36,418 nucleotides of DNA from Candidatus Magasanikiibacteriota bacterium (GCA_026396515.1 JAPLWQ010000003.1:357569-393986), one strand, 5' to 3'. Shown: positions 8,630 to 36,418, counted from the first letter of the stretch. The notes: generated by a model not told the origin, from the sequence alone. Program-made: numbers and translations.

Positions 8630-8639
8630 GGAGAAGAAC

Positions 8640-21396: not shown

Positions 21397-21423
21397 AAAC
21401 GATGAATTAATATTAAAGCGTTT

Positions 21424-22371
21424 TTACTTAACTATTTCCACTTCCGGAACCAACTCTACTCCATATCTATTATATACTTTTTCTTTAACGGCTTCAACCA
21501 CGGCGATGATGTCGGCTTGTGTCGCGCCTCCGTAATTGACGATGAAATTCCCGTGTTCTTGAGAAACACCGGCTCCGCCAATTTGAAAACCCTTCAAACC
21601 TAATTCTTCAATCAGATAACCGGCGGGAATTGTCCCCCGCTCGCGATATTGCGCCGGCAGAAGGCCTGGCTCGCCCGGCCAATTCGCAAGTTTAATATTC
21701 TTAAAAAAACTGCCTGCCGAAGGAAGCGCGGGGTGACGGCCATGGCGGCCGGCTATATTATCACTGGTTAGCCTAAGGATTTCTTTTGCGTCTCCGGGCG
21801 AGAACTTAAATATTATACGTAATATTACTCCTCCATCTTTCTTAAAAATGCTGTTGCGGTAGCCAAAATCACATTCGTTTCTTTGTAACGATATTATTTC
21901 ACCGTCTTTCCAGATATAAACATCCTCTATACTCTGCGACGTGTCGCTACCCATGGCTCCGGCATTTCCGCGAACCGCGCCGCCGACTGTTCCCGGAATC
22001 CCGGCCGCCCACTCCATACCAGTAAGTGAATTTGCCGCCGCAGCGCTGACGAGTGATGAAAAACTTGCTCCCGAATCGCAAACAATTTTTCCACCTTGGC
22101 AATCCAATTTATTGGTCTCAACGGAAATTACAACCCCTTCAAAACCATTGTCCGACATAAGCACGTTTGATCCGCCGCCGAGAATAAAAAAAGGCACGCC
22201 TTCGCCGGATAAATAACTTAAAAGACCGACTAACTTATCATTGTCGTTCACAGAAACCAAATATTCAGCCGGTCCGCCGACTTGAATAGTGGTATGCTTT
22301 CGCATCGGCTCGTTTAGCCTGACGCGGCCGTATTTTTTCAGCTCTTTGTAAAGCTCATTCATACTTGCCAT
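21424..22371 (-). CDS. murB: UDP-N-acetylenolpyruvoylglucosamine reductase MurB
   Basis: FAD-binding PCMH domain (ILGGGSNVL, GIPGTVGGAVRGNAGA) and a MurB C-terminal domain (SAGSFFKN, GNFIVN). Confidence 0.85.
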   Translation of the reverse strand: MASMNELYKELKKYGRVRLNEPMRKHTTIQVGGPAEYLVSVNDNDKLVGLLSYLSGEGVPFFILGGGSNVLMSDNGFEGVVISVETNKLDCQGGKIVCDSGASFSSLVSAAAANSLTGMEWAAGIPGTVGGAVRGNAGAMGSDTSQSIEDVYIWKDGEIISLQRNECDFGYRNSIFKKDGGVILRIIFKFSPGDAKEILRLTSDNIAGRHGRHPALPSAGSFFKNIKLANWPGEPGLLPAQYRERGTIPAGYLIEELGLKGFQIGGAGVSQEHGNFIVNYGGATQADIIAVVEAVKEKVYNRYGVELVPEVEIVK

Positions 22372-22373
22372 TT

Positions 22374-22402
22374 TTGATATTTTGGGCTATGATTTATACA
22401 TT
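22374..22402 (+). promoter_or_regulatory. Candidate promoter TTGATA-N17-TACATT for the ATP-grasp::Nudix operon
   Basis: TTGATA at 22374-22379 and TACATT at 22397-22402. ATG 22416 is 13 nt downstream of the -10 box, so the mRNA is nearly leaderless. Confidence 0.5.
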
Positions 22403-22428
22403 ATATTGGAAAATTATGACGCTGGCAA
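22400..22428 (-). promoter_or_regulatory. sigma70 promoter TTGCCA-N17-TATAAT for the murB operon
   Basis: The minus strand reads TTGCCAgcgtcataattttccaaTATAAT. The -35 box is at 22428-22423 and the -10 box at 22405-22400. It lies inside the first codons of the divergent ATP-grasp gene. Confidence 0.6.
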
Positions 22429-24080
22429 ATAGCGCAAAAAACGCCCTGAAAAAGAAGCTTGGAACAAAGCGGCTTTTTTATGTCTGTCGCGATATTGAAC
22501 GCGCTGAAGCGTCGCTTCTACTCGGGCTAAATAACTTCTATATTATTTCCAATGACAGCTATTACGGCCGCCAACTGTCAAAAAAGAATCACCACATAAT
22601 ATTGATCAAAGAAAAAAGGATTTTGGACACGCGCGAACTTTTGACAAGCGCCGCGGCTAAAAAGATTATCAGGCGATTCGATAATATCATGGTCTTTAAA
22701 CCGACCGCTCAGATTGAAGAAACCTGCCGGGAACGCGGATGGAAACTGCTCAATCCACCCGCCGCTCTGGCCGGACAAGTGGAAGAAAAAATTTCGCAAG
22801 TTAAATGGCTGGGAAAGTTAAAAAAATATTTGCCGCTGGAAAAAATTGATATCTTAAAGAGTATCAAATGGAAAAGCCGCAAGTTTATTTTGCAGTTCAA
22901 TCGCGCTCATACCGGCAGCGGCACTATACTCATTGATTCAAGGGTAAAACTGGACAAATTGAAACAACAATTTCCCAGTCGCGAAGCCCGTGTTTCCCGC
23001 TTCGTTGACGGGCCCTGCTTCACGGTTAATTGCCTTGTTTGGGGTAAGCGAGTATTAGCCGGAAATATCAGTTATCAGATAACCGGACTTAAACCGTTTA
23101 CCGACAACCCATTTGCCACAATAGGCAACGATTGGACTCTGCCAAAAACTTTGCTTTCAAAAAAGCAAATTACTGAAATCAAAAAAATTGCTGACGAGGT
23201 GGGAAAAAAATTACGGGCCGATGATTGGCAAGGCCTGTTTGGTATAGACATTTCATTGGATAGCCGAACCGGACGAGTATATTTAATTGAAATTAATGCC
23301 AGACAACCGGCTTCTACAAGTTTTGAATCCATTCTGCAAAATGATGTGCACACAAAAAACGGAGCAACCATTATGGAGGCGCACTTGATGGCTCTGCTTA
23401 ACTGCCCGCCAAAAAAATTTCAACTGATAAAAATTTCTAACGGAGCGCAGCTGGTGCAGCGCGTGACTGCCGCAACACCGCATCTGACAGAGCCATATTT
23501 ATATAAACCGACAAAGTTCAAACATATTCGCTATGAGAACATTAAACCGGACAGTGATTTAATGAGGGTTCAGACGCGCTTCGGCATAATGGAAAGCCAT
23601 AACAATCTGAATGAACACGGAAATGAGCTGTCAATTTTTATCCGTTCCGGAAAAACAAAAAGGATTTTCAACGGACCTCGCGCCGGAATGATAATTATTA
23701 AGAATGGACGATTGCTTTGCATCGAAAGAGACCGTTTCGGCTACCACTACTTCACCCTACCGGGCGGCACTTTGGAAAATAGGGAGAAAGAGCAAGAAAC
23801 CGCTCGCCGCGAAATTCTGGAGGAAACCGGTTTAAAAATTGGCATTGATGTCACAAAAACACCTATAGTAGTAGAGGGGTCCCGTCATGAAACATATTTT
23901 TGGGCCGAAAAAGCAAAAGGCCGTGTACGATTAGGCGGCCCTGAAAGAGAGCGCAACACTAACGGTAACCACTATTCGCTAAAGTGGATAAAAATTTCAG
24001 ATATTAAAAAAATTAATCTTTTACCTTCGGAATTAAAAAAAGGTCTGATAAAAATATTTAGGAAATATGCTTTCGCCTAA
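22416..24080 (+). CDS. ATP-grasp ligase fused to a C-terminal Nudix hydrolase
   Basis: ATP-grasp core GLFGIDISLDSRTGRVYLIEINARQPAS. A perfect Nudix box G-x5-E-x7-REUXEEXGU (GTLENREKEQETARREILEETGL) lies at 23766-23834. I chose ATG 22416 because the ORF-track start at 22365 would overlap the murB start and the promoter. Confidence 0.8.
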   Translation: MTLANSAKNALKKKLGTKRLFYVCRDIERAEASLLLGLNNFYIISNDSYYGRQLSKKNHHIILIKEKRILDTRELLTSAAAKKIIRRFDNIMVFKPTAQIEETCRERGWKLLNPPAALAGQVEEKISQVKWLGKLKKYLPLEKIDILKSIKWKSRKFILQFNRAHTGSGTILIDSRVKLDKLKQQFPSREARVSRFVDGPCFTVNCLVWGKRVLAGNISYQITGLKPFTDNPFATIGNDWTLPKTLLSKKQITEIKKIADEVGKKLRADDWQGLFGIDISLDSRTGRVYLIEINARQPASTSFESILQNDVHTKNGATIMEAHLMALLNCPPKKFQLIKISNGAQLVQRVTAATPHLTEPYLYKPTKFKHIRYENIKPDSDLMRVQTRFGIMESHNNLNEHGNELSIFIRSGKTKRIFNGPRAGMIIIKNGRLLCIERDRFGYHYFTLPGGTLENREKEQETARREILEETGLKIGIDVTKTPIVVEGSRHETYFWAEKAKGRVRLGGPERERNTNGNHYSLKWIKISDIKKINLLPSELKKGLIKIFRKYAFA

Positions 24081-24882
24081 AGCTGAAAAATTAATTAACG
24101 ACTATTTTAACCTTCCTTTTGAAGGCCTGTCCGGAATACGCTGCCCGTATTTTAATAACACCAGGCGGCGCGCCCGCGGACAATTGCGGGGGTTGATAGG
24201 CAAGGGTACGCCTGAAGAAATAGTCGAGGAAGCAAAAATAATTTCTACACAATACCGGCATAATATTTTTGATAAGGACGGTTTTTGCTGTATTCACGCC
24301 GCTCACAGCGATGAAGAAAAAAATGATGACGTGAGAAAATTTTTAATTGACAACGACCTCGGCATTGATTGCTCGGGATTTATCAGCCAGGCGCTCATTG
24401 CTCATTATAAGGAAACAAAAAATATTAATATTGCTAAAAATTTTTATTTTTGGCCTTTAAAAAATTTTTGGCGACGACTGGTTGCACGGCTCCGTCCGGT
24501 TGAAAACATGTCGGTGAGCGTGATAGCAAAAGATGAAAATTCGTTAAAAATTGCCGACGGACGGGAAACGTATGACTGGTCAAAATTGCAGCCAGCCGAC
24601 CTTATATTTATGATGGAAACAGGACCGAACAAAAAGCGAAATCATATTTTAATTATTGAAGATAACGAAGGCTCAATAATTAAATATGCCCACTCCCGGG
24701 CCTGGTCGTCTGACGGTAAGTACGGGCACGGCGTGGCTCGCGGAGTTATACGAATAACCAAATTGGCCGGCAATATGCTGGACCAAACTTGGGAAGAGCA
24801 AGGAAAAACAAATGATGAAAATGAAACTTATCGCGAAGCCAGTGAGGCGAAAATATTTGAAGTCCGACGTATAAAAATTTAA
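24067..24882 (+). CDS. NlpC/P60-family cysteine peptidase/amidase without a signal peptide
   Basis: Catalytic Cys motif GIDCSGFISQAL. Downstream PADLIFM...NHILII...YAHS matches the His and polar residues of the papain-like NlpC/P60 triad. It overlaps the upstream gene by 14 nt. Confidence 0.7.
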   Translation: MLSPKAEKLINDYFNLPFEGLSGIRCPYFNNTRRRARGQLRGLIGKGTPEEIVEEAKIISTQYRHNIFDKDGFCCIHAAHSDEEKNDDVRKFLIDNDLGIDCSGFISQALIAHYKETKNINIAKNFYFWPLKNFWRRLVARLRPVENMSVSVIAKDENSLKIADGRETYDWSKLQPADLIFMMETGPNKKRNHILIIEDNEGSIIKYAHSRAWSSDGKYGHGVARGVIRITKLAGNMLDQTWEEQGKTNDENETYREASEAKIFEVRRIKI

Positions 24883-24891
24883 CATTCATCT

Positions 24892-26031
24892 ATGCAGATA
24901 ATGTCGTGCGAACCATTTTCACCCCAGCTTCTGGAACAGGCGCTGTTATATTTAATTTGCGCGACAATCGGCGCCTTTGTTTTAGCCCCTCTTTTAACAA
25001 AATTTTTATACAAATTCAATATTACGCGCCGCGGAGAATATGATTTTACTTTGCGCGGATCCGAACGGTCGCAAAAAATTGGCACGCCAATAATGGGCGG
25101 CATTTTGGTAATAATTACTGTTACAATAATCACATTATTATTTAATTGGGAACGAAGTTATACTTATGTGCCAATCGGCGTGATGGCAATATCGGCGCTG
25201 CTTGGAGCAGCAGACGATCTTCTGAATATCTTTGGCGCAAAACGGCGCGAACGCAGCTTAAAGAATACCTGGCTTTTGGTTAAAGTTCACAGAATTTGGT
25301 ATATGCGCGTGCTTCACGCCTTGAGTCTGCCTTGGGTGGCATTCCGGCAATTTACTTCGGCTCTCGGCTCGCACCCGGGCCGTGGCATTCAAGTACACGA
25401 AAAACTATTAATGCAATTCATTGCAGGCGCCGTGACGGCCTGGTGGATATACTTTAAACTCGGTGAAAACTGGCGTTCGCTCTGGCTGCCGTTCGATGGG
25501 GAAGTTTCTTTAAGCTGGTGGATTATCCCACTGGTTATTTTACTTGTAATGTTTACGGCAAATGCTGTAAATATCGCTGACGGCCTGGACGGCCTGGCCG
25601 GCGGCGCGCTGATTATGACTTTTTCCGGGCTAACCGCAATAAGCTGGATAGAAGGGCGCGTAGCTTTTACTCTTCTCAATGCTACGGCGGTTGGCGCGCT
25701 CATTGCTTACACTTATTTCAATATTAAACCGGCCCGCTTTCAAATGGGCGACGTGGGCACGCTGGGGCTGGGGGCGCTTTTCGCAATCAACGCCATTGCC
25801 GTGAATAAAACAATTCTCATTCCCCTGCTGGGTTTTATTTTTTATGTGGAAGCGATTTCCGTGATAATCCAAGTATTTTACCGCCGTCTGCTCGGCCGCC
25901 GCTTTTTCAAAATGGCTCCTCTGCACCATCACTTTGAATTCCACGGCTGGAGCGAAGAAAAAATCGTTATGCGCTTTTGGCTGATTCATCTGTTTTTCGT
26001 GGTTGTGGCAGTGTGGCTATCCCTGCATTAA
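24892..26031 (+). CDS. mraY: Phospho-N-acetylmuramoyl-pentapeptide transferase MraY
   Basis: Motifs NAVNIADGLDGLA, MGDVGTLGLGA and APLHHHFE, with about 10 TM segments. Confidence 0.9.
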   Translation: MQIMSCEPFSPQLLEQALLYLICATIGAFVLAPLLTKFLYKFNITRRGEYDFTLRGSERSQKIGTPIMGGILVIITVTIITLLFNWERSYTYVPIGVMAISALLGAADDLLNIFGAKRRERSLKNTWLLVKVHRIWYMRVLHALSLPWVAFRQFTSALGSHPGRGIQVHEKLLMQFIAGAVTAWWIYFKLGENWRSLWLPFDGEVSLSWWIIPLVILLVMFTANAVNIADGLDGLAGGALIMTFSGLTAISWIEGRVAFTLLNATAVGALIAYTYFNIKPARFQMGDVGTLGLGALFAINAIAVNKTILIPLLGFIFYVEAISVIIQVFYRRLLGRRFFKMAPLHHHFEFHGWSEEKIVMRFWLIHLFFVVVAVWLSLH

Positions 26032-26071
26032 GTATATAGATGGTTCGTTATGCAAAATAATTTCTTTAAAC

Positions 26072-26746
26072 ATGGACGGATACTTATCCTGGGATGACAA
26101 TACAATTACTGATTTCTCCGAAGCGAATGTGAGCGCAATGTATGAACGCGGTTTTGTTTTTACCCGACTTGGCAAAGGACAGATGACGCAAACAAGAAGC
26201 GTGCGGGTGGATTTGAGCAAATTTGAACTCAACAGTGAAAACCGCCGTATTTTACGCAAGGTGGATAATATTGAACTTAATATTGAAACACTCCCCCATC
26301 CAAATTATGATTGGCGCATACACAAGCTCGGTTTTGATTTCTATACCGCAAAATTCGGCCCAAAAACTTTTTCCGCCAATAAAATCAAAGAGCTTTTAAC
26401 AAGCAACGAAAGCAATTACAACAAATTATTCGTTTATCAATTTAATAACGCGCCGGTCGGTTATTGCATTTGTTTTGAGAATAACAATTGGCTTCATTAT
26501 GGTTATCCTTTTTATGACTTGAACTCTAAAATCGATAATCTTGGCATCGGTATGATGACAAAAGCGATCGCTTGGGCTAAAGAAAACAGTAAAAAATATG
26601 TCTGTCTGGGCAGCGCCCAAAACCCATCCGCAGTTTATAAACTGCAATTTGCCGGCGTGGAATGGTTCGACGGGCAAACCTGGCGTTCTGATGCGGAAGA
26701 ATTAAAAAAGATTCTATTAACCGGATCCCCGCTTGCGCGAGGATGA
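26072..26746 (+). CDS. ATE/Bpt-family (arginyl- or leucyl-tRNA--protein transferase-like) GNAT-fold protein
   Basis: The C-terminal half VGYCICFENNNWLHYGYPFYDLNSKIDNLGIGMMTKAIAWAKENSKKYVCLGSAQNPSAVYKLQFAGVEWFDGQTW follows the ATE_C pattern (..Y.FYDP...SLG...L..I..A......Y.YLGY......K..YK..F.P.E.....W). The N-terminal GFVFTRLG...RVDLSKFELNSENRRILRK matches ATE_N but lacks the Cys residues. I chose ATG 26072 because the ORF-track start at 26003 overlaps mraY. Confidence 0.65.
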   Translation: MDGYLSWDDNTITDFSEANVSAMYERGFVFTRLGKGQMTQTRSVRVDLSKFELNSENRRILRKVDNIELNIETLPHPNYDWRIHKLGFDFYTAKFGPKTFSANKIKELLTSNESNYNKLFVYQFNNAPVGYCICFENNNWLHYGYPFYDLNSKIDNLGIGMMTKAIAWAKENSKKYVCLGSAQNPSAVYKLQFAGVEWFDGQTWRSDAEELKKILLTGSPLARG

Positions 26747-28131
26747 CACGGAATATTATGAGACATATTCACTTCATCGGAATCTGCGGCGTCGGTATGA
26801 GCGCCCTCGCGATTCTTTGGAAAAAGATGGGTTGGAAAGTAACCGGTTCTGACGCCGGATTTTATCCGCCTATATCCACCCATTTGGATCAAAACCAAAT
26901 CGATTTTTACGCCGGCTGGCATCCTGAAAAAATTGGCACGCCGGATTTGGTTGTGGTCGGCAATGTCGCCGGGTCGGAAAATCCGGAATGGCTATTCGTA
27001 CAGGAGCATAATATTAAGCACATTTCATACCCGGAATTAATCGGACAAAATTTGGTAAGGAAAAATTCAATTGTCTGCGCCGGCACCTGGGGCAAGACTT
27101 CTACCACCGCTTTACTTTCATACATTTTAACCCGGGCGGACTACAAACCCGCCTATATGTTTGGCGGTCTCTCCCTTAGCCTGCCATATGCGGCTGACGA
27201 TTTGGGCGGCGATTGGAGTGTGCTTGAAGGCGATGAATACAAAACCGGCAAAGACAACCCCATGGCAAAATTCTTTTCATATAAACCGACTTATTTGCTT
27301 CTTACCGGTCTTGAGTGGGATCACTTCGATATGTATCCGACGGAAGAATCATATTATGGCGCCTTTAAAAAGCTGATGAAATTATTGCCGGAAAACGGAC
27401 TGGTGCTCGCTTGCACCAACAGCGAAAACATTGAACGCGTACTTCCTGAAACGAACGCAAAGGTAATCAGATACGGAACCGATAACGCAGACTACATATT
27501 TAGCGAAGTGACATGCGGAAAAGACGGAATTTCTTTTAAAATTTCCAGCGGCGGAGCGACAAATGAAATTAAATCGCCAATGCTTGGCGATTATATGGCT
27601 GAAAATATCTGCGGAGCTTTCGCCATGGCGAGCGAAATCGGGGTTGCCAAAGGTACAATTATTGACGCCATCGGAAGCTTTGGCGGAATTAAGCGCCGGT
27701 TGGAAAATCGCGGCAAGACAGCGGAAGGCGCAACAATATTTGACGACATCGCCCACTCACCAATTAAAGCGCGCTCAGTTCTGCAAACGCTAAGAAATAT
27801 TTACAGCGGAAAAATTATCGCAGTTTTCGAACCAAATACCGGCAATCGCCAGGTTTCATCCGCGCCGGGTTATGACAGCAGTTTTTTAAATGCGGACATT
27901 GTCGTAATTCCCCGTCTGACAAAAATAAAAATCGACGAAAAAACCAATGATACGGTTATGGACGGCCAAATGCTAGCAGACATCATTGCGCGAACGCATA
28001 AAACTGTGAAACTTATTAGTGATGACGCACAACTTGTGAAATATTTAAAAACCGCAGCCGGTCCTGAAGACGCAATCGTCTTTTTGGGCAGCCACGGTTT
28101 CAGGGGTATGATTGAGAGCCTGATTGATTAG
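26743..28131 (+). CDS. Mur ligase of the MurC/Mpl branch, Mpl-like (UDP-MurNAc:peptide ligase)
   Basis: HFIGICGVGMSALA, VTGSDAGFYPPISTHL (E. coli Mpl has YPPMST), P-loop GTWGKTSTTA. The start overlaps the upstream stop as ATGA. Confidence 0.75.
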   Translation: MTRNIMRHIHFIGICGVGMSALAILWKKMGWKVTGSDAGFYPPISTHLDQNQIDFYAGWHPEKIGTPDLVVVGNVAGSENPEWLFVQEHNIKHISYPELIGQNLVRKNSIVCAGTWGKTSTTALLSYILTRADYKPAYMFGGLSLSLPYAADDLGGDWSVLEGDEYKTGKDNPMAKFFSYKPTYLLLTGLEWDHFDMYPTEESYYGAFKKLMKLLPENGLVLACTNSENIERVLPETNAKVIRYGTDNADYIFSEVTCGKDGISFKISSGGATNEIKSPMLGDYMAENICGAFAMASEIGVAKGTIIDAIGSFGGIKRRLENRGKTAEGATIFDDIAHSPIKARSVLQTLRNIYSGKIIAVFEPNTGNRQVSSAPGYDSSFLNADIVVIPRLTKIKIDEKTNDTVMDGQMLADIIARTHKTVKLISDDAQLVKYLKTAAGPEDAIVFLGSHGFRGMIESLID

Positions 28132-28293
28132 CTATTTTCCTTCATCAACCACTTCGGCAACGTAGTTTTCTCCGACTTCTTTAACGTTAAGAGTAATTCC
28201 GCAGTGGTTGCATTCAATGATATGGCCATCAGCCAGATCAGGATAGTTAGTCAAATCGATTTCATTCTTACACTCAGGGCAAATGAGTTTCAT
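28132..28293 (-). CDS. 53-aa zinc-ribbon protein of the LysW/ArgW carrier-protein type, without the terminal Glu
   Basis: Manual translation: MKLICPECKNEIDLTNYPDLADGHIIECNHCGITLNVKEVGENYVAEVVDEGK. The CPxC...CxxCG ribbon and acidic tail match the LysW architecture. It is below the ORF-track size cut-off. It has its own TTGACA-N17-TATTAT promoter. Its stop codon abuts the stop codon of the convergent Mur ligase gene. Confidence 0.6.
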   Translation of the reverse strand: MKLICPECKNEIDLTNYPDLADGHIIECNHCGITLNVKEVGENYVAEVVDEGK

Positions 28294-28324
28294 AATATTT
28301 ATTAATTGCTTTGAAAACGATTAC

Positions 28325-28353
28325 ATAATACTACATTTATAATAATTTGTCAA
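28325..28353 (-). promoter_or_regulatory. sigma70 promoter TTGACA-N17-TATTAT for the LysW-like gene
   Basis: The minus strand reads TTGACAaattattataaatgtagTATTAT. The -35 box is at 28353-28348 and the -10 box at 28330-28325. It lies 31 nt upstream of ATG 28293. Confidence 0.6.
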
Positions 28354-28358
28354 CCGTT

Positions 28359-29237
28359 ATGGTTACGCCGCAAATAAAAGCCGAAGAACTTGCACAAGCC
28401 ATCGGTTTGGAAGGAGATCTGTATTTAAAGCGCGAAGATCTTCACCCCTACGGCTCGCATAAAGGCCGTTCAATTCCAAAAATGCTTTCTAAATATGCAG
28501 CCGAAGGATGGAAGAGTTTTGTGATTTCATCTTCCGGCAACGCCGCTCTCGCGGCGGCGATTGTCGTAAAAAAATTGAATCTGGAATTGTCCAATAAAAT
28601 TTTACTGGCCATTTATGTGGGGAAGGATATTAATAATGAAAAATTTGACAGAATTAGTATAGCAATAAAAGACGAAAAAAATATTTCTATTAAACAGGTG
28701 ACGCACCCGAAACACGAGGCATTTTTAGAGGATAAACTCGGCAAAGCAAAAAATTTGCGCCAGTCCACAGATGATATGGCGTTAAAAGGATATGAAGAGT
28801 TGGCCGGTGAACTCGGGGAAATAAAAAAAATATGCGCAATATTTATTCCCACTTCAAGCGGTACAACCGCGCAGGGACTCTATTTGGGCTTTGAGAATCT
28901 TGGCTTGCACCCGCAGATTCATATTGCTCAAACCGATGAATGTCATCCGATAGCGGACGCTTCAGTGCCTTCATCGGGGTCTGCTTCACTGGCCGACGCG
29001 ATTGTCGATAAAATCGGGCATCGAAAAAATGCCATAAACGATCTCATGAAAAAAAGTAATGGCCGGGGATGGATTATATCTAACGAAGAGATACTGGACG
29101 CAATCACATTGGTGAAAAGAACGGAAAATTTGGATATTTCTCCGAACAGCGCTTTGTCTGTGGCCGGATTAAAAAAAGCCGTACAAAACGGCTATTCATT
29201 CGACGGCCCTGTTGTCTGTCTGATTACCGGACTTTAA
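28359..29237 (+). CDS. PLP-dependent fold-type II enzyme (threonine synthase/cysteine synthase superfamily)
   Basis: KREDLHPYGSHKGR contains the PLP-lysine motif (K.E..NP.GS.K.R). SSGNAA and PTSSGTT loops are present. I chose ATG 28359 because the TTG at 28347 overlaps the divergent -35 box. Confidence 0.65.
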   Translation: MVTPQIKAEELAQAIGLEGDLYLKREDLHPYGSHKGRSIPKMLSKYAAEGWKSFVISSSGNAALAAAIVVKKLNLELSNKILLAIYVGKDINNEKFDRISIAIKDEKNISIKQVTHPKHEAFLEDKLGKAKNLRQSTDDMALKGYEELAGELGEIKKICAIFIPTSSGTTAQGLYLGFENLGLHPQIHIAQTDECHPIADASVPSSGSASLADAIVDKIGHRKNAINDLMKKSNGRGWIISNEEILDAITLVKRTENLDISPNSALSVAGLKKAVQNGYSFDGPVVCLITGL

Positions 29238-29244
29238 TACCTCA

Positions 29245-31293
29245 TCATAAATTTATCACGGCAATATCCATTTTGCCGTCAAAATTGACATCAACAGTGC
29301 CAACCATCGCCCCGGCGGATCCTAAAAGCCCGCTGGGTATAAATTCAGACAACTTCTTTCCGGTACCGTCAAATACCCTTATCGGCATTTTCTTTACTGA
29401 CATGGCACTAACGATAATCTCATCTCTCCCGTCCCCGGTTATATCGCCGGTTGCCACGTAAATTCCACCTTTGAAGGTTTTATCATATGGGTAAAAACGC
29501 TTTTTTAATATTGAAATGCGATTGTCATAGATTAGTACTTCCGCCGGCTTGCCTTTGCCCACACCAACAACTACACTGCCTGGTTTGCCAGGACCATCCA
29601 GTTGAGCGGCAGCCACAGAAAAACCGCCGACATATTTTTTCGGGTCAAACGGCGTATAACCGCCCTGCATAACCGCTCCATGATAATTGTACATCATTAT
29701 ATTATTGCCAAAACTTGGAGAAATTACGATTTGGTTCTCTGCTTGTTTTTCAAATAATTTATTAACTGAAATTCTGATATCCCCCTTAAAATTTCCGCCG
29801 AACGGATAATCACTAAACCAATGCTCTCCCTGACTGTTAAATATTTCAAGCTTTGATCCGCTTGCCACTATTGTTTCCTCATCTCCGGCGTTGTCGATAT
29901 CGGAAAAAAGGATTCGCGCTCCACCCGGGTACCGGGCATCATAGGCAAAAAATCCGTTACGCACTCTTTGCCCAAGATAATCTACAAATCTGACAAACGC
30001 GCCATTCACAAAAACCAAATCTTTAACTGTCTGATAGGTTTTTAGCATGAGCAGGCCGTCTTTTGCCGCCACTTTAATTTTACTGACGATCCCGCCATTA
30101 TTTACTTTAGGATCTTGTGTGCCGATCAGTTTTTCAAACTCTCCGCCCAGGTCAACCTCTTTTTCTTCTGCCAATGAATTAACAACAGCCAAGCCATTGG
30201 TAAATTCTCGCCGCCAAACATCTTTGTAATATCCACTACCGCCGTTCATGGGTGTGGCTACGCCCATGGGGGCTCCAAGGTTCACATTATATTCATCATA
30301 CCACCATTTTTCAGAGTGGCTTTGTGAACCGGCGTCATAGCTAAAATATCCGTTTTCCATAAGTGAACTGGCCAAACCAAAACGCACTTTAGTATAATCG
30401 GTCTGCGCTTTTGTCGGGTCGGCTGAAGTGTTGCCAAGTATGGCGACTTTCGGCTCGCGGCTGGTATTGGCCGACAGGCCATAAAGCCTCATTTTTTCCT
30501 CCCAGGAAATATAGCCGTTGGTGGAAAAATTTTCAAAATATATTCCGTTGATATCGCCGTAATATCCTTTGTCGCCATTACCCACAATAATTAACGGCTG
30601 TTTGTATTTTTCACGCGTCAATTTAAAAAGTTTGCTCATACCGGATTGCCAAGCGCTGTCCAAGTCGGCCGCTCTATCATTTTGGCCGTCGCGATTAGAA
30701 TCAATCGCTCCGCCGTTCAGCCAAGAAATATTTGCCCAAGTATTATCATAAAATACGCCGTCCCATAAACCGGACGAAAGAAGCTCATTTACCACAAAAT
30801 CTGATAAATAGTCATTCCATCGTCGGCCATTTGTCTGATAATCGGTGACATTAAGCATCCAGGCGGTATCCCAAAAAACGACGTGGGCCCCCCCGCCGTC
30901 GCGCAACCACATGTCATCAGAAATGCCGCTGAGCAGGCGTTTAAACAAACCGTTTGGACTGCGATCCCATTCAGCGTGTTTATTTATCGGAAATTCCTGT
31001 GAAGTAATATATACGAGTATTTTTATTTCCGGATTTATTTGCCTAATTTGGCGAATTTGCTCCGCACTATTTTGCTGAGCGAGCATGTGTAGAATTAATA
31101 CGTCCCATCTTGCCAAGAGCGGCACGTCGCTTTGACGAATGGGAGAATAGAGATAAAGGCTTGCCAGCCTCGGATATTCATTAGCGCTTTGCGCTTTTAC
31201 CGGTCCGTTTTGCGGTAAAAGACTTAAAAAAACAACCACCATTAGTATTAGCGACAAAAATTTTTTAGATTGTCGCGAAAAAGCGGCTGCCAT
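29245..31293 (-). CDS. Secreted protein: an N-terminal glycoside-hydrolase-like TIM-barrel region plus C-terminal FG-GAP/VCBS-like repeats
   Basis: Signal peptide FLSLILMVVVFLSLLPQNGPVKAQS. C-terminal Ca-binding-type repeats are SDIDNAGDEETIV, GDITGDGRDEIIV and VDVNFDGKMDIAV. The GHL assignment of the N-terminal region is tentative. Confidence 0.6.
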   Translation of the reverse strand: MAAAFSRQSKKFLSLILMVVVFLSLLPQNGPVKAQSANEYPRLASLYLYSPIRQSDVPLLARWDVLILHMLAQQNSAEQIRQIRQINPEIKILVYITSQEFPINKHAEWDRSPNGLFKRLLSGISDDMWLRDGGGAHVVFWDTAWMLNVTDYQTNGRRWNDYLSDFVVNELLSSGLWDGVFYDNTWANISWLNGGAIDSNRDGQNDRAADLDSAWQSGMSKLFKLTREKYKQPLIIVGNGDKGYYGDINGIYFENFSTNGYISWEEKMRLYGLSANTSREPKVAILGNTSADPTKAQTDYTKVRFGLASSLMENGYFSYDAGSQSHSEKWWYDEYNVNLGAPMGVATPMNGGSGYYKDVWRREFTNGLAVVNSLAEEKEVDLGGEFEKLIGTQDPKVNNGGIVSKIKVAAKDGLLMLKTYQTVKDLVFVNGAFVRFVDYLGQRVRNGFFAYDARYPGGARILFSDIDNAGDEETIVASGSKLEIFNSQGEHWFSDYPFGGNFKGDIRISVNKLFEKQAENQIVISPSFGNNIMMYNYHGAVMQGGYTPFDPKKYVGGFSVAAAQLDGPGKPGSVVVGVGKGKPAEVLIYDNRISILKKRFYPYDKTFKGGIYVATGDITGDGRDEIIVSAMSVKKMPIRVFDGTGKKLSEFIPSGLLGSAGAMVGTVDVNFDGKMDIAVINL

Positions 31294-31302
31294 ATGCTTT
31301 AA

Positions 31303-32532
31303 CTATTTTACTGATGCTTGAGCTTTGCGAAAAACATTTATCAAGTCAGGATAATATAGTTCCGGTAAGTGATGACCCGACATATATTCCACCGCATTTT
31401 GACGGTAAGAAATATCGGTAATTTTTTTCAACGCATCCGTAAATTCACCGTTATTTATATCAACGGACAACCCGGCGCCGGAATTTTTAATCAGTTCCGG
31501 CAAAGCGCCAAATTTGGAAGTTATGATCGGCACGCTCTGCGACCACGCTTCAATCGCCACCAACCCGAAGATTTCATGCCACTGACTCGGGATAATTAAA
31601 GCGGTCATTTGGCGCAAATATTTGGAAATATCTTCGCGCTTCATGGCGCCGTGTAAAAAAATATTTTTTGCATTTGCGCTATTTATAATATTATTCAGAC
31701 GCGCCAAAAGCGGTCCATCGCCAAATACATGCAAAGAATAAGGAAACTTTTCACTTACCCATTTTTCGACTAGTATCACAATGCCTTTCTCTTCATTTAA
31801 ACGTCCGATATAAGCAAAGGCCGGATCTTTTGGCGCCGATACCGCCGCTTCTACCCGCTTTATGGATGAAGGTAAAAAATGAGGAATGACTGCAATTTTA
31901 CCGGCCGGAAAACCCCATTTGATAAACATCTGTTTAACAAATTCGCTCGGCGCAATATATGAATCCACATATTCTTCGTAATATTTCTTGGCGTGATGAA
32001 TATATGCTTCCATCGAAGCCAGCGCGCTTTGCATCGGAGACCGGTGAATGCACAAGTGGCGGGCGCATTGGTGGTAGTGGCCGCCGTGACATCGTTCGCA
32101 AACAGCGCCTTCCGTAAACATCAAATAGTTAGGACAAAGCGGTTTCCAGTCATGGATTGTCATAATCACCGGAATCTTTTCTTTCTTCAATACAGATAGA
32201 ACCGATGGCGACAAATGATGATAAATCAAATGCAGGTGAGCGACATCCGGCCGCTCGTCTTTAATCAGGCGCTTTAACTTTCTTGCCGCTTCGCAGGAAT
32301 ATATTACGCGCAGCGGTTGAAGAAGCGAACGGAAATTAAACGAACCAAACTCAATATTTGAAACAAAATATTTGGAATACGGCGTCGGCTCGTTCCGCTT
32401 ATCTTTCATTGAGAAAACCGAGACCGAATCCCCTTTTGTCCGTAAAATATCGCACAAATCCAAAAAATGATGGTCAGCGCCGCCGCGGCGATAATAAAAT
32501 TTATTAATCTCTAATATTTTCATACTTAACAA
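31303..32532 (-). CDS. Family 4 (GT-B) glycosyltransferase
   Basis: The C-terminal EIFGLVAIEAWSQSVPIITSKFGALPELI matches the E-x7-E motif region of glycosyl transferases group 1. An alternative start is MKILEINK at 32523. Confidence 0.8.
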   Translation of the reverse strand: MLSMKILEINKFYYRRGGADHHFLDLCDILRTKGDSVSVFSMKDKRNEPTPYSKYFVSNIEFGSFNFRSLLQPLRVIYSCEAARKLKRLIKDERPDVAHLHLIYHHLSPSVLSVLKKEKIPVIMTIHDWKPLCPNYLMFTEGAVCERCHGGHYHQCARHLCIHRSPMQSALASMEAYIHHAKKYYEEYVDSYIAPSEFVKQMFIKWGFPAGKIAVIPHFLPSSIKRVEAAVSAPKDPAFAYIGRLNEEKGIVILVEKWVSEKFPYSLHVFGDGPLLARLNNIINSANAKNIFLHGAMKREDISKYLRQMTALIIPSQWHEIFGLVAIEAWSQSVPIITSKFGALPELIKNSGAGLSVDINNGEFTDALKKITDISYRQNAVEYMSGHHLPELYYPDLINVFRKAQASVK

Positions 32533-34024
32533 ACCATAAATATCTTATCGCCGCCAGCGAAATCCACCACCAAATGTTGAAAAAATTAACATCCCAGTAT
32601 ATGGAAATGGTAAACCCGGCCATTAATACAAGCGCCACGCTCCACCAGGTAAAAAACAAGCGGGCTTCATCCGGGTCGTCAGACATAAGCAGCGCGGATC
32701 TGTTCATAAAAAACTGATACCAAAGATACGCCAGCCATTCAATTAGCACCAGAAAGCCAATCGCTCCCAACTGGTAAAGTATGGCCAGATAATCGTTATG
32801 TATCTCACGCATGGCGATGCGAAAAGGCCAATTATTATCGAGGCCGGAAATTTCATAACCAAGTCCGACGCCGAAAAACGGGTGCGTTATCCAGGCCGAA
32901 TAGCCCACCTTCCAGGTTGAAAGACGCCAGCGAAAACTGGCATCCTGCCCGCTGGTCGCATAACCAACATCTGTTCGCTCGGAAAGCACTTGGGATGTGT
33001 TGGAAAATGATTCACCGGTGGCTTTGAAAAATATTTTTCCGGCATTGATATACGCGAGCATTAGTACCGCTGACGCGGCGGCAACAGCGACAATCGTTAA
33101 AAAGTATTTAAAGCGCCGACGCAAGGTCGGTAAAAAAATTACCCAGAAAAACAGAACTGCGGCAACGGCCATCCATAAATGCCGCACCAACGATACAACC
33201 AAAGCCACGCCGACAAACGACATAGCGATAAAAATTAAAATATATACTAATTTCTTTTTTCCATACTCTTTGGCAAGCGGCCAGATGAACCATGATATCA
33301 GCCAAAAGAAAAAAATTACCAAATAAAAAATATGCGTGCCGGCGATAAGGCGCTCACCGGCGGTTGAGAGCGGCGTATATTCGCTCCACAATCCCTTACC
33401 GTTAATCAATCCATAAAAAAGAAAAAAGAAAAGCCCGATACCGCCGACAGTAAGCGCTCTCATAAATTTCAGCCAGTCATCTTTTGTACGCAATATCGCC
33501 GCGACCAGAAAATACAAAATGCCGTAAATAATATAATTTTTGTATGTTCCAAACGCTAGGGCCAAATTTAGCTGGCGGAATACCGCAGTAATAAAACCAT
33601 ATGTGCAGGCAACGCCGAACCCGATGAGAAAAAAATCAATTTTTTTAAATTGCCACTTTATTCTGCCTTCCAAAAGGCGCGAACAAACACTTAAAAAAAT
33701 AAAGAGTATAACCAAATCAAGCGGATAAAATTTAAAATCTACCCCGTTAAGCGTGATCGGCAAAAGCGTGAAATACCTTTCAAACCACATTGTGCCAATT
33801 ATGACAACATACAAGCCCGCTTCCGGGCGCATAATGGTTGAAAGAAATACCAGTAAAAATGCAAAAAAATAAAGCAGGGGCGAAAACCCGAAATTGATTA
33901 CCGAAACGCAAAAAATGGCCATTGACGAGACGGCGAGTATGCTCCAAAACAGATGCTGTTTCGCGTCTGTATCCAGGGGTAAAAGTGACTTCATACTGGT
34001 AAATTCTAACATAAAATCAGCCAA
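32504..34024 (-). CDS. O-antigen ligase/polymerase-like (Wzy_C) polytopic membrane protein
   Basis: More than 10 TM segments and the HNDYLAILYQLGAIGF motif, typical of WaaL/Wzy_C. The likely true start is ATG 33994 (MKSLLPL), because the TTG at 34024 and the ATG at 34012 lie inside the promoter. Confidence 0.75.
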   Translation of the reverse strand: MADFMLEFTSMKSLLPLDTDAKQHLFWSILAVSSMAIFCVSVINFGFSPLLYFFAFLLVFLSTIMRPEAGLYVVIIGTMWFERYFTLLPITLNGVDFKFYPLDLVILFIFLSVCSRLLEGRIKWQFKKIDFFLIGFGVACTYGFITAVFRQLNLALAFGTYKNYIIYGILYFLVAAILRTKDDWLKFMRALTVGGIGLFFFLFYGLINGKGLWSEYTPLSTAGERLIAGTHIFYLVIFFFWLISWFIWPLAKEYGKKKLVYILIFIAMSFVGVALVVSLVRHLWMAVAAVLFFWVIFLPTLRRRFKYFLTIVAVAAASAVLMLAYINAGKIFFKATGESFSNTSQVLSERTDVGYATSGQDASFRWRLSTWKVGYSAWITHPFFGVGLGYEISGLDNNWPFRIAMREIHNDYLAILYQLGAIGFLVLIEWLAYLWYQFFMNRSALLMSDDPDEARLFFTWWSVALVLMAGFTISIYWDVNFFNIWWWISLAAIRYLWFVKYENIRD

Positions 34025-34031
34025 AAGACAA
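34003..34031 (-). promoter_or_regulatory. Promoter TTGTCT-N17-TAGAAT with an extended TG, for the surface-glycan operon
   Basis: The minus strand reads TTGTCTtttggctgattttaTGtTAGAAT. The -35 box is at 34031-34026 and the -10 box at 34008-34003. ATG 33994 is 8 nt downstream of the -10 box, which implies a leaderless mRNA. Confidence 0.55.
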
Positions 34032-34067
34032 TAAAAAACACAAAACCCGCCGGTAAAGACGGGTTTT
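34032..34067 (-). terminator. Rho-independent terminator ending the GC-rich giant gene
   Basis: The minus strand reads AAAACCCG-(10-nt loop)-CGGGTTTT (34067-34042), then GTGTTTTTTAT. A second stable hairpin with a UUCG loop, GCCCCATC-ttcg-GATGGGGC, lies at 34140-34121. Confidence 0.7.
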
Positions 34068-34165
34068 GCGTATCAACTGAGATCATCACAGAGAGAGTTA
34101 TGATAATCTCATGGTGATTTGCCCCATCCGAAGATGGGGCAAGGAAAGAATGATTGAGGTGGGAA

Positions 34166-36418
34166 CTACGGAACGAACCCGATGAACAGGCCCTGGGTGA
34201 GGCAAATCCTCTCGACCGGGGTCAGCTCAAAGAAGTTCGACTGGTTGCTGAGACAGCACTCGGGAATGGGATCCTGTTCCGCACACGGCTCGCAGTGGTC
34301 AACGACCCAGTTGCATGAACCGCAATGCGGCATCGGGCTACCATCCACGTACTGCCAGGGCACGGGGCCCCAGTAGTTGCAGCCACCGGCGACATCGAAA
34401 TCGTCGCAGGTGCTGTTGATCGTGAGCGGGTTGCCGTCGACATCCAAATCCCAGCAGAAGAGGTACTGGCCCGTACCCGGAACCGGAATCGGTTCGCAGG
34501 TATGCGTATCCTTTCCACACGCTTCATCGGCCAAGCAGTCCTCGGCTTGGGAGCACTCCACGCAGATGCTGTCGAGGCAAACGGGCAGGGCCGGATTCGT
34601 GCAGTCGGTATCGATCACGCACTCGCCGGCGTCCGTGTCGGTATCGCCGTCCGAGTCAGAATCGCTGTCGGTATCGGTATCCGTATCACCGTCAGTGTCC
34701 GTGTCGGTATCGGTGTCGGTATCACCGTCAGTGTCCGCATCCGTGTCAGCGTCAGTGTCCGTGTCGGTATCGGTGTCCGTATCCGCGTCAGAGTCGGTAT
34801 CGGTATCCGTGTCCGTATCGGTGTCGCTGTCGGTGTCGGTATCACCATCGCTGTCCGTGTCCGTGTCCGTGTCGGTATCTGTATCGGTGTCGGTGTCGGT
34901 ATCCGTGTCCGTATCGCCGTCGGTGTCCGCGTCGGTGTCGGTGTCACCACCAGCATCCGGCACGCCACCATCGGGGACGGAACCGCAGTACCCTTCGGTA
35001 TCGCAGACGAGATCAGTGTCGCACTCCTCGAGCGGAGGCTCGGCACACGGCTGGCCGTCTTCGCCAACGCACGCACCCGCCGGAATATTCTGACACTCGT
35101 ACTCGCACACCACGCAAGTGGCGGACGAAGAGGTTGCCAGACAGACCGAGGAAGTATCGCACGACGCGATCGTGATCCAGCTGTTGTGGTAGATTGATCC
35201 GTCGCAGGCAGCGCCGGTACCGTCACAGTACTGCCGCGAGATGCGGCGCTGTCCATCGGCTCCGCAGAGCGCACCGTTGCAGCGGTAGTCGTACCACTGG
35301 CTGCAAAGGGTGAACTCGGCCTTGTAGGAGTCGGCCGGACAGACCGGCAGATCGCCGGTGCAGTATTCGTCGTTGTCGCACGGTCCGGCCGCGTCGCGGC
35401 AAACCGCCGTGTCCGGCAGATAGGAATCGGCCGGGCAGTCGGGGGCGGTGCCGGTGCAGAGCTCTGCCGGATCGCAATCGCCGGCGGAGATGCGGCACTC
35501 GAGCGTGGCCGGTTCGAACGTATCCGCGGGGCAGAACGAATTCACGCCGTCGCAGTACTCCGGCAAATCGCAGTCGCCCATATCGGTGCGGCAAACCTCG
35601 AACGGCAGCTTGACTGCGTCCTCGCACAAACCGAGCCCGTCGCAGTAGCTGTCCTCAGCACAGTCGTCCGCGGCCAAGCCGCAGGGCGTTGTGTCGGGTT
35701 CGAAATTGATCTCGCAGGTCCCAGCGCCGTCGCAGGTATCCGCGTGATCGCAGGTGGATTCGGAGGAATCACCGCACGGGGCACCGAGCAACTCGAAGTT
35801 GCCACCCAGATCACAGCACTCGCTGCCGGGGAAGCAATCCCCAGTATCGGTGTCTGTATCGGTGTCTGTATCGGTATCCGTGTCGGTATCCGTGTCGGTA
35901 TCCGTGTCGGTATCCGTGTCGGTATCCGTGTCCGAATCAGTATCCGTATCCGTATCGGTATCGGTGTCCGTGTCGGAATCCGTATCCGTGTCTGACCCAG
36001 TGTCAGTGTCGGTGTCCGTGTCGGTATCGGTATCACCATCGGTGTCCGTATCGGTATCGGTATCACCATCGGTGTCCGTATCGGTATCGGTGTCACCACC
36101 GGCATCAGGGCCACCGTCGCCAGCGTCCGGACCAGCATCCATGCCAGTATCCGTATCGCCGTCAGTGTCACTGTCGGTGTCCGTGTCCGTATCGGTGTCG
36201 GTATCACCATCGGTGTCCGTATCTGTGTCAGCGTCCGTGTCGGTATCGGTATCCGTGTCTGACCCAGTGTCAGTGTCGGTATCCGTGTCCGTATCGGTGT
36301 CGCTGTCGGTGTCGGTATCACCATCGGTGTCCGTATCCGTGTCAGCGTCCGTGTCGGTATCGGTATCCGTGTCTGACCCAGTGTCAGTGTCGGTATCCGT
36401 GTCCGTATCGGTGTCGCT
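34166..36418 (-). CDS. Large acidic (Thr-Asp)n repeat protein with five disintegrin-like Cys modules and further Cys-rich domains. The 5' end lies beyond the window.
   Basis: The frame stays open upstream of M at 36142 through to the window edge (only D, T, S and G codons). It includes CRTDMGDCDLPEYCDGVNSFCPADTF, CRISAGDCDPAELCTGTAPDCPADSY and CRDAAGPCDNDEYCTGDLPVCPADSY, which follow the ADAM/disintegrin pattern CR...G.CD..E.C.G....CP.D. There are two long DTDTD tracts. GC content is high and all other frames are repeat shadows. Confidence 0.8.
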   Translation of the reverse strand, partial: SDTDTDTDTDTDTGSDTDTDTDTDADTDTDTDGDTDTDSDTDTDTDTDTDTGSDTDTDTDTDADTDTDTDGDTDTDTDTDTDSDTDGDTDTGMDAGPDAGDGGPDAGGDTDTDTDTDGDTDTDTDTDGDTDTDTDTDTDTGSDTDTDSDTDTDTDTDTDTDSDTDTDTDTDTDTDTDTDTDTDTDTDTDTDTGDCFPGSECCDLGGNFELLGAPCGDSSESTCDHADTCDGAGTCEINFEPDTTPCGLAADDCAEDSYCDGLGLCEDAVKLPFEVCRTDMGDCDLPEYCDGVNSFCPADTFEPATLECRISAGDCDPAELCTGTAPDCPADSYLPDTAVCRDAAGPCDNDEYCTGDLPVCPADSYKAEFTLCSQWYDYRCNGALCGADGQRRISRQYCDGTGAACDGSIYHNSWITIASCDTSSVCLATSSSATCVVCEYECQNIPAGACVGEDGQPCAEPPLEECDTDLVCDTEGYCGSVPDGGVPDAGGDTDTDADTDGDTDTDTDTDTDTDTDTDTDTDSDGDTDTDSDTDTDTDTDTDSDADTDTDTDTDTDADTDADTDGDTDTDTDTDTDGDTDTDTDSDSDSDGDTDTDAGECVIDTDCTNPALPVCLDSICVECSQAEDCLADEACGKDTHTCEPIPVPGTGQYLFCWDLDVDGNPLTINSTCDDFDVAGGCNYWGPVPWQYVDGSPMPHCGSCNWVVDHCEPCAEQDPIPECCLSNQSNFFELTPVERICLTQGLFIGFVP
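34628..34946 (-). repeat. Hexanucleotide (GAYACN)n coding microsatellite-like tract encoding (Asp-Thr)n, internal tract
   Basis: The plus strand reads ...gtgtcggtatcggtgtcggtatcaccgtcagtgtcc... with strict 6-nt periodicity. Confidence 0.85.
35843..36418 (-). repeat. Hexanucleotide (GAYACN)n tract with a near-perfect 114-bp tandem duplication at 36200-36418
   Basis: 6-nt periodicity is present throughout. Positions 36200-36304 and 36314-36418 are identical apart from one mismatch (T at 36224 versus C at 36338) over 105 nt. Confidence 0.85.

Follow-up and report, generated by a model that had tools for sequence, protein, structure and literature searches.

Tandem modules resembling one segment of the disintegrin domain in a predicted (Asp-Thr)n-rich surface lipoprotein of Patescibacteria

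How does a bacterium come to encode tandem modules that look like part of an animal disintegrin domain, and what might it use them for? This question is raised by a gene at one end of a 36,418-nt stretch of DNA (GCA_026396515.1 JAPLWQ010000003.1:357569-393986) from a Candidatus Magasanikiibacteriota bacterium; "the window" below means this whole stretch. The gene encodes Cys-rich regions separated by (Asp-Thr)n (DT) tracts, and its GC content is unlike that of its neighbours. We found that the protein is a new architecture using a known module: the Da segment of the disintegrin domain, in a tandem, self-contained form, in a probable surface lipoprotein of the Candidate Phyla Radiation (CPR, or Patescibacteria) with DT stalks. 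Attachment to host cells lies at the heart of Patescibacteria biology, yet its molecular basis is poorly understood, and the protein is a concrete candidate for their surface machinery. It also ties the "animal" arm of the ADAM and venom disintegrin domain, structural Ca2+ site included, to a prokaryotic repeat family of very large size, a link that makes the origin of the metazoan disintegrin (D) domain directly testable.

Layout of the gene

The open reading frame (ORF) lies on the minus strand, ends with a TAG stop at 34166-34168 and was translated up to the window edge at 36418, over 750 open codons; amino acid (aa) numbering starts at that edge. The N-terminus lies beyond the edge, and the visible part is the C-terminal 750 aa, with 194 Asp, 139 Thr and 56 Cys residues. 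A first-pass annotation made from the sequence had described an ORF of more than 750 aa, cut by the window edge, in which DTDTD tracts alternate with Cys-rich regions. The translation agrees on both points, with two tracts and two Cys-rich regions. The start given there, 34032, takes in ~134 nt of 3' intergenic DNA with two hairpins, and the word "giant" finds no support, the complete ortholog, in locus L084, having 904 aa. The parts of the gene are as follows.

34166-36418, minus strand: partial coding sequence, the C-terminal 750 aa and the TAG stop (open translation; homologs and an ortholog support the frame)
35837-36418, minus strand: (Asp-Thr)n tract 1, aa 1-194 (composition D 0.46, T 0.38)
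36095-36145, minus strand: Gly/Pro/Ala-rich stretch GMDAGPDAGDGGPDAGG within DT tract 1, aa 92-108 (translation)
35777-35836, minus strand: short Cys-rich lead-in CFPGSECCDLGGNFELLGAP, aa 195-214 (no family match)
35594-35776, minus strand: sister-type four-Cys modules M0 (aa 215-245, CGDSSESTCDHADTCDGAGTC) and M1 (aa 246-275, degenerate) (tblastn, phmmer)
35306-35593, minus strand: three canonical disintegrin(Da)-like modules, M2 (aa 276-307), M3 (aa 308-339) and M4 (aa 340-371) (Pfam, PDB profile search, AlphaFold2, Foldseek)
34949-35305, minus strand: lineage-specific Cys-rich middle domain, aa 372-490, ending with the linker VPDGGVPDAGG (homolog search)
34631-34948, minus strand: (Asp-Thr)n tract 2, aa 491-596, a length-variable spacer (absent at the equivalent place in the L083 ortholog)
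34169-34630, minus strand: lineage-specific Cys-rich C-terminal domain, aa 597-750, 18 Cys (homolog search)
34028-34141, minus strand: 3' untranslated region with a UUCG-loop hairpin (34120-34141) and a terminator-like hairpin with a T-run (stem 34038-34071) (both hairpins readable in the L003 intergenic sequence)

The Cys-rich region at aa 195-490 holds 38 Cys. All five ~32-aa modules, with four Cys each, fall within aa 215-371 (35306-35776), in agreement with the five consecutive modules that had been placed at 35290-35830. An internal start at M93 (ATG, 36140-36142) was considered and rejected: a protein made from it would start partway through a DT tract and carry no signal peptide, and in the L084 ortholog this same linker motif is internal.

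Comparison of the modules with the disintegrin domain

The canonical modules M2, M3 and M4 (CRTDMGDCDLPEYCDGVNSFCPADTF, CRISAGDCDPAELCTGTAPDCPADSY and CRDAAGPCDNDEYCTGDLPVCPADSY) each show the spacing CRx5CDxxExCxGx4CPxD, just as the first-pass annotation had read it. In a Pfam scan of the 750 aa, Disintegrin (PF00200) was the sole family to match at E<=10. With a gathering cutoff of 35.1 bits, the whole protein scored 40.0 (four stretches, E=6.9e-10), and by that E-value the resemblance is far beyond chance. The match was confined to positions 46/48-75 of the 75-position profile. Scored singly, the canonical modules reached 22-27 bits each against positions 52-75, all below the cutoff; the whole-protein score is the sum over modules. 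M0, M1, the lead-in, and the middle and C-terminal domains gave no Pfam match when scanned alone. Disintegrin was likewise the sole Pfam match of the complete L084 ortholog (E<=0.01). Neither an M12B (reprolysin) metalloprotease nor ADAM_CR was detected in the 750 aa at E<=10. The same holds for TSP_3 (PF02412) and DUF4215 (PF13948, the closest to the Myxo Cys-rich repeat), families that the first-pass annotation had brought up, in a scan whose HMMER filters may drop very weak matches.

We used profile and fold searches as additional techniques. A single-sequence phmmer search of the PDB with aa 195-490 returned nothing at E<=1. A profile built from 35 bacterial modules, in contrast, matched only P-III snake-venom metalloproteinases (SVMPs) and ADAM22, with E=3.6e-11 to 4e-5 (catrocollastatin/VAP2B, bothropasin, AaHIV, atragin, ecarin, RVV-X, K-like and ADAM22), so the relationship to PDB entries appears only with a profile. 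The alignment falls on the "disintegrin-like loop" region of the SVMP and ADAM chains. An AlphaFold2 (AF2) model of aa 195-490 had predicted local distance difference test (pLDDT) scores of 91-97 across the canonical modules (aa 275-364) and of 63-80 for M0 and M1. When this model was used as a Foldseek query, 40 of the 42 best PDB matches were SVMP, ADAM or disintegrin chains, with probabilities up to 1.00. Local fits included 3k7n (root mean square deviation 1.6 Å over 61 columns, 38% identity) and ADAM22 (1.8 Å over 78 columns); global template-modelling scores were low because the query was a multi-module model.

The published consensus for Ca2+-site III, CD(X)2(E/D)XCXG(X)4C(X)2(D/N) (PMC4885070), is fitted by all three canonical modules (CDLPEYCDGVNSFCPAD, CDPAELCTGTAPDCPAD and CDNDEYCTGDLPVCPAD). 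M0 also fits, being one residue shorter, and M1 departs from it. The site III Ca2+ is buried, structural and not removable by ethylenediaminetetraacetic acid, and the disintegrin-like loop in ADAMs and in P-III SVMPs is packed against the next subdomain and sterically inaccessible to ligands (PMC4885070). The Ds half of the domain, with Ca2+ site II, was sought through its CGN...E.GE.CD motif, which does not occur in the 750 aa. No RGD/KGD/MVD-type tripeptide was found in the loops, which read TDMGDC, ISAGDC and DAAGPC and are of the ECD-like type with Cys, as in ADAMs. The most likely role of the canonical modules is structural, not that of an integrin-type ligand.

The Cys pattern is nearly invariant, all four being held by 3227 of the 3325 motif-defined modules; 92 xCCC modules look like variants in spacing. 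In one clear case (P0006, aa 40) a module is without both Cys1 and Cys4, and P0006 and P0012 show two more cases of a similar kind. The joint loss hints that pairing may be C1-C4/C2-C3 within a module, unlike in ADAMs, where the Cys of the Da segment bond partly to neighbouring subdomains, e.g. Cys468-Cys499 to Cw (PMC4885070).

Profile, motif and predicted fold together indicate that the canonical modules are homologs of the Da "arm", or site III segment, and not of a whole disintegrin domain. The first-pass claim of disintegrin-like modules thus stands in a narrower form: it is supported by a Pfam score above the cutoff, the PDB profile match at E=3.6e-11 and the fold search, but only the last ~28 of the 75 positions are present. 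With the D domain found in ADAMs and in P-III SVMPs (2dw0, 3dsl, 3k7l, 3k7n, 3g5c) the window modules share the four-Cys spacing and conserved residues as well as an extracellular, disulfide-rich setting. They differ in being about the last third of the 75 positions, used as a self-contained tandem unit with exactly four Cys that would be paired within the array, whereas the ADAM Cys are partly cross-bonded to neighbouring subdomains. ADAMs and SVMPs also have the Ds "shoulder" with Ca2+ site II, the M12B protease and ADAM_CR, none of which was found in the window protein, and their disintegrin-like domain is animal while the window modules are prokaryotic.

A complete ortholog and its N-terminus

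The complete 904-aa ortholog lies at L084:7071-9785. Read from an internal ATG, it starts with MEKRFLFCFVAIVAAIAC, a lipoprotein-type signal that fits PROSITE-type lipobox rules. Its parts follow in the order signal, DT/DS (Asp-Ser) tract, Cys-rich domain, second DT/DS tract, module array with middle domain, third DT tract and C-terminal domain. A second DT lipoprotein (MKKFYGMMIVAMMAVGC...DTDTD) is encoded 1.4 kb upstream in L084. At the equivalent position of a more distant relative, L085, we found a Cys-rich lipoprotein without a DT tract. Exact-protein look-ups retrieved only two Logan contigs, both ending at or inside DT tracts.

By orthology, the window copy would carry an N-terminal lipid anchor. 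The ortholog and most members of the module family are predicted to be of extracellular or lipoprotein type, and a cell-surface role of the window protein is plausible because its complete ortholog is a lipoprotein.

A large prokaryotic module family

A word-indexed search with the central region returned 12 homologs, 11 of which had precomputed PF00200 matches. In an exhaustive HMMER search, the module profile detected 7,654 representative proteins at E<=1e-3, of which 2,003 also passed E<=1e-30; the longest has 5,486 aa, and the number of matched stretches per protein goes up to 44. The module therefore belongs to a large prokaryotic repeat family, and "eukaryote-style", the term used in the first-pass annotation, misplaces it. 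Full-text literature searches for bacterial or prokaryotic disintegrin, or disintegrin(-like) repeats, found no paper, and the prokaryotic family appears to be undescribed, though Pfam detects its members.

The pattern CR[AI]SAG[VDI]CD, derived from a 7-sequence alignment, had at least 599 matching stretches in the species genomes of GTDB. Among the best 80 stretches, for which taxonomy was read, most came from Myxococcota (Polyangia, Sandaracinaceae, Myxococcaceae), Candidatus Binatia, "Deltaproteobacteria" metagenome-assembled genomes (MAGs) and Phycisphaerae/Planctomycetota, with scattered matches in Bdellovibrionales, Spirochaetes, Chitinophagaceae, Candidatus Saccharibacteria and Candidatus Altarchaeum. 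Module genes in those genomes have the GC content of their flanks. Provided the binning is correct, the family reaches Archaea and other CPR lineages.

A signal-peptide-like N-terminus was present in 108 of the 139 family representatives with a full start, and a lipobox-like motif in 48 of the 139. The modules co-occur with PKD and dockerin domains in family proteins. In P0148, P0003 and P0011 a DUF4215-like unit, CGNGxxExGExCDDGN, stands directly before the first module, and the two together make up Disintegrin positions 31-75. M0 is of a sister type, CGDx5CDNPDTCDGxGxC, that accompanies canonical modules in many bacterial proteins; M0 and M1 match repeats in L036, L011, L022, P0159, P0009 and P0025 (tblastn, phmmer).

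The nearest known relatives are uncharacterised "Cys-rich repeat proteins" and hypothetical proteins (for example P0014-P0163, L036, L040 and P0007), which have the same 30-32-aa module in tandem and the same sister type. Such multi-module proteins mostly carry a signal peptide or lipobox and come mainly from Myxococcota, Binatia, Planctomycetota and "Deltaproteobacteria" MAGs. Unlike the window protein with its 3+2 modules, they have 10-44; they are without DT tracts (except L040) and without the window protein's middle and C-terminal domains, and their GC content is that of their genomes. DUF4215 and Dicty_CTDC repeats are found in similar secreted proteins, and Dicty_CTDC lipoproteins occur at the equivalent L085 locus, but neither model matched the window protein at E<=10.

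Two further loci were noted for their native low GC: L034:2086-4182, from a Candidatus Altarchaeum MAG, with five identical-looking tandem modules and MopE-like and dockerin domains, and L052:1578-3221, from a Candidatus Saccharibacteria MAG, with a single canonical module.

DT tracts and lineage-specific domains

Asp makes up 46-50% of the DT tracts, and Tandem Repeats Finder reported DT-coding arrays with periods from 6 to 114 nt. In the L083 ortholog (L083:1-540) the middle Cys-rich domain is fused straight to the C-terminal domain without a DT tract, indicating that DT tract 2 is an insertion or expansion specific to some lineages. L040, a deltaproteobacterial MAG locus, encodes 17 module stretches, then a ~140-aa DT tract, then a C-terminal hydrophobic anchor-like tail. 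From their positions in L083, L084 and L040, the DT tracts behave as length-variable spacers, adjoining anchors and between domains. The Logan contig L001 breaks inside DT tract 2.

A 114-nt DT-coding unit, in two copies of 99% identity, occupies 36192-36418 at the extreme window edge. Such near-identical copies suggest recent unequal recombination, and the duplication is a likely reason why short-read assemblies break here.

NCBIfam models of ClfA, ClfB, SdrC and SdrD aligned to the repeat regions only, with 129-145 bits against cutoffs of 999-2500 (E about 1e-40); these alignments are compositional only. No LPXTG motif was found at the C-terminus of the window protein. The staphylococcal adhesins of this kind (microbial surface components recognizing adhesive matrix molecules, MSCRAMMs: ClfA/B, SdrC/D) resemble the window protein in having a long acidic dipeptide repeat. 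Their Ser-Asp (SD) stalk adjoins the cell anchor and acts as a wall-spanning spacer. They differ in the dipeptide, SD and not DT, and in their A-domain and LPXTG, both without counterpart in the window protein. The MSCRAMM anchor is a C-terminal sortase signal, whereas that of the window protein is probably an N-terminal lipid. Full-text searches on Asp-Thr repeats and on CPR cysteine-rich lipoprotein adhesins found nothing.

Among the fetched loci and proteins, the sole match of the middle domain was the Patescibacteria ortholog in L084 (60% identity). The C-terminal domain had one homolog among 5.8 billion proteins (P0013, 78% identity); within the loci and proteins searched its orthologs were limited to L003, L083 and L084, and a GTDB scan found no relative of it. 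Against L083 the C-terminal domain is 51% identical while the neighbouring Wzy protein is 80% identical. This faster divergence, seen in one comparison, would fit surface-type evolution.

Gene neighbourhood and GC content

The best named homologs of the window transketolase are from Patescibacteria, Candidatus Magasanikbacteria and Parcubacteria (57-67% identity), so the host is a CPR bacterium. Three genes lie downstream of the target.

32504-34024, minus strand: Wzy_C (O-antigen-ligase-like) membrane protein (Pfam)
31303-32532, minus strand: GT4 glycosyltransferase (Pfam)
29245-31293, minus strand: GHL15/FG-GAP protein (Pfam)

The gene order around Wzy_C, GT4 and GHL15 is the same in L003, L083, L084 and L085. 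The window neighbours (Mur ligases, MurB, PBP2, an MraY-like transferase, a sulfatase-family protein (PF00884), Wzy_C, GT4 and GHL15/FG-GAP) are, by their family assignments, peptidoglycan and envelope genes. In four lineages the cluster of Wzy_C, GT4 and GHL15/FG-GAP (window 29245-34024, minus strand) keeps its place beside the target. The cluster may represent a system for protein O-glycosylation or for wall glycan, and it might modify the Thr-rich tracts.

The GC content of the target gene is 0.55-0.69 against ~0.44 in the backbone, with the jump exactly at the gene boundary. At third codon positions (GC3) the non-repeat Cys domains have 0.77-0.79 and nine neighbouring genes 0.42-0.49. The first-pass annotation had pointed to this contrast, correctly, and had also raised a chimeric join to a high-GC organism, against which two assemblies and three syntenic relatives speak. 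Window positions 19245-34829 and 19245-34150 are matched at 100% identity by two Logan assemblies, each from a different run, one contig spanning the junction between backbone and gene before it breaks in a DT tract. Three diverged relatives also have a GC-rich ortholog, placed directly upstream of the same low-GC Wzy gene. In L003 the nucleotide identity is 71% and the C-terminal domain is 78% identical in amino acids; in L083 Wzy is 79% identical; and in L084 Wzy is 52% identical and the central region, compared over 302 aa, 47% (E=4e-72).

Four-fold degenerate sites compared between the window (34169-35836) and L084:7071-9785 were 0.31 identical where 0.29 is expected, i.e. they are saturated. 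The orthologs nevertheless keep a GC3 of 0.67-0.79 beside Wzy genes at 0.45-0.50, an excess of 0.2-0.3 over their neighbours. Since the four-fold sites are saturated and the high GC3 persists, plain un-ameliorated horizontal transfer does not explain the contrast. No lineage can be singled out as donor: over the module array, identity is ~45-48% for almost all of the 20 best non-CPR loci, and these near-equidistant loci include Altarchaeum, Polyangiales, Binatia and Bdellovibrionales. The GC-rich gene is real and resident in the Patescibacteria genome. Chimeric assembly was rejected as its source, being contradicted by the independent assemblies, the synteny of the three relatives and the saturated four-fold sites.

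Proposed function and alternative explanations

We think it probable, though far from settled, that the protein is a membrane-anchored surface protein of Patescibacteria, in which a lipid anchor, a DT stalk and a module rod present a C-terminal head for attachment to host or matrix. Patescibacteria are generally regarded as episymbiotic. Host or matrix attachment is the most economical function, and it is somewhat more probable than not that the candidate adhesin serves it. The lipid anchor would hold the protein in the cytoplasmic membrane. The DT tracts, taken as disordered stalks by analogy with the SD repeats of MSCRAMMs, would be charge-repelled, extended spacers that let the folded parts reach across the cell wall and past it. 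The modules, whose Ca2+ occupancy we infer from the site III motif, would form a stiff, protease-resistant short rod, Ca2+-loaded and disulfide-locked like the ADAM arm. As the protein would be anchored at its N-terminus, the lineage-specific C-terminal domain would be distal, and a likely binding head for a host cell or matrix. The overall build would be that of beads on a string: DT stalk, five-module rod, middle domain, second DT spacer and C-terminal domain.

Several observations weigh against this reading. The signal peptide and lipobox of the window copy are carried over from a 47%-identical ortholog, its own N-terminus lying outside the window. The Foldseek E-values are marginal (best 1.1e-3, none <=1e-3). 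None of the 150 best multi-module proteins has a DT tract, and the combination of stalk and modules appears to have little comparative backing beyond L040 and the CPR orthologs. AF2 confidence for the middle domain is low (pLDDT <50), with no fold or family assigned, and the model of the C-terminal domain, from a 2-sequence alignment, is unusable (pLDDT 35). Neither domain has an assigned binding partner, and adhesion is argued from lifestyle.

The main rival is that the protein is an envelope glycoprotein scaffold, which we consider unlikely but worth serious attention. The DT tracts would be O-glycosylated by the neighbouring Wzy_C-family enzyme, GT4 and MraY-like transferases would build the glycan, and the product would be a glycocalyx or S-layer-like coat. 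This would account for target, Wzy_C, GT4 and GHL15 keeping the same order in four Patescibacteria lineages. The Wzy_C family includes the protein O-oligosaccharyltransferases PglL, PilO and WsaB, staphylococcal SD repeats are glycosylated by GT4-family enzymes, and a monoderm CPR cell, which we take the window genome to represent, has to our knowledge no lipid A for an O-antigen ligase to act on. However, the target ends in a terminator of its own and forms a separate transcription unit, the L085 Cys-rich lipoprotein at the equivalent position is without a DT tract, and for this lineage no sequon for glycosylation is known. A secreted or displayed effector acting on the host (a toxin, protease inhibitor or receptor mimic), modelled on the receptor-blocking venom disintegrins, is improbable. 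The homology of the modules to venom and ADAM disintegrin-like domains and the fast evolution of the C-terminal domain would suit it, but no catalytic or toxin domain was detected at E<=10, the ortholog is predicted to be lipid-anchored and not released, and the loop has no RGD/KGD-type motif, carrying instead an ECD-type Cys that in ADAMs is buried and no ligand (PMC4885070).

The Asp content of the tracts (46-50%) and the Ca2+-site motif in each module could also point to a high-capacity Ca2+/metal-binding or mineral-nucleating polymer, in which the more than 300 (Asp-Thr)n residues would be the functional part and the Cys-rich domains accessory. We regard this as quite improbable: the DT tracts differ in length from one ortholog to another and can be dispensed with, while the Cys-rich domains are the conserved parts, and literature searches found no comparable documented system. 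Most improbable of all is an assembly artefact, a low-GC genome joined to a high-GC fragment, or a very recent, functionless horizontal acquisition. The step from GC 0.44 to 0.60-0.68, and from GC3 ~0.46 to ~0.78, exactly at the gene boundary would be expected from it, and modules are most abundant in high-GC Myxococcota and Binatia; yet the junction is 100% identical in two other assemblies, orthologs show the same synteny and GC contrast in three diverged lineages, four-fold sites are saturated between window and L084 with GC3 high in both, and the middle and C-terminal domains were found, among the sequences searched, only in these Patescibacteria loci.

A wider reading builds on the lipid-anchored attachment protein favoured above, and we put it forward as a tentative possibility that we would not yet back. 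The animal disintegrin domain would have a prokaryotic counterpart, Patescibacteria would mount a short array of it on lipid-anchored (Asp-Thr)n stalks for host attachment, and GC3 would be held high by a gene-specific force, be it selection, GC-biased conversion or recurrent exchange with high-GC partners. Under it, the DUF4215-like unit followed by a module appears to supply the two halves of the metazoan D domain, in matching order, in some bacterial proteins.

If the protein is merely another uncharacterised Cys-rich surface protein, the finding has ordinary annotation value. Its importance would be greater if the animal domain turned out to derive from the module family, or if this protein mediates attachment between CPR bacteria and hosts. 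Genes for Cys-rich surface lipoproteins are GC-rich in low-GC CPR genomes, even across lineages with saturated synonymous sites, and this persistent GC3 excess could mislead binning and chimera filters and may report an unusual evolutionary force.

Other features of the window and related loci

Further GC-rich stretches were seen in the related loci. L084:1-9800 and L085:2400-8400 and 18000-20300 are multi-gene stretches of GC 0.55-0.69 in backbones of 0.33-0.45, beside the Wzy/GT4/GHL15 cluster. They encode further Cys-rich lipoproteins, among them a paralog with a DT tract in L084, and family-less proteins with hydrophobic, signal-like N-termini. In L085, Dicty_CTDC-repeat lipoproteins have a GC3 of 0.91 beside a Wzy gene at 0.29.

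The window itself has a second GC-rich patch at 6066-9638, next to its only tRNA gene, tRNA-Glu(CUC) at 6723-6795 on the minus strand. An ORF at 8132-8629 (a possible membrane protein with a weak MASE4 match) and a Band_7/SPFH gene at 8640-9638 have a GC3 of 0.83, and the ORF at 6066-6626 has 0.68, against ~0.46 in the backbone. From its position beside a tRNA gene, this patch may be another island.

Two long ORFs on the minus strand, at 396-2471 (691 aa) and 2511-5684 (1057 aa), had a sub-threshold Pfam match to DUF4992 only. At 16480-18702, also on the minus strand, lies the gene for a transketolase-like protein that is unusually long (740 aa), has a DXP-synthase-N-like region and is widely conserved in Patescibacteria. 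One close transketolase match is labelled Candidatus Udaeobacter, a label that is probably a binning error.

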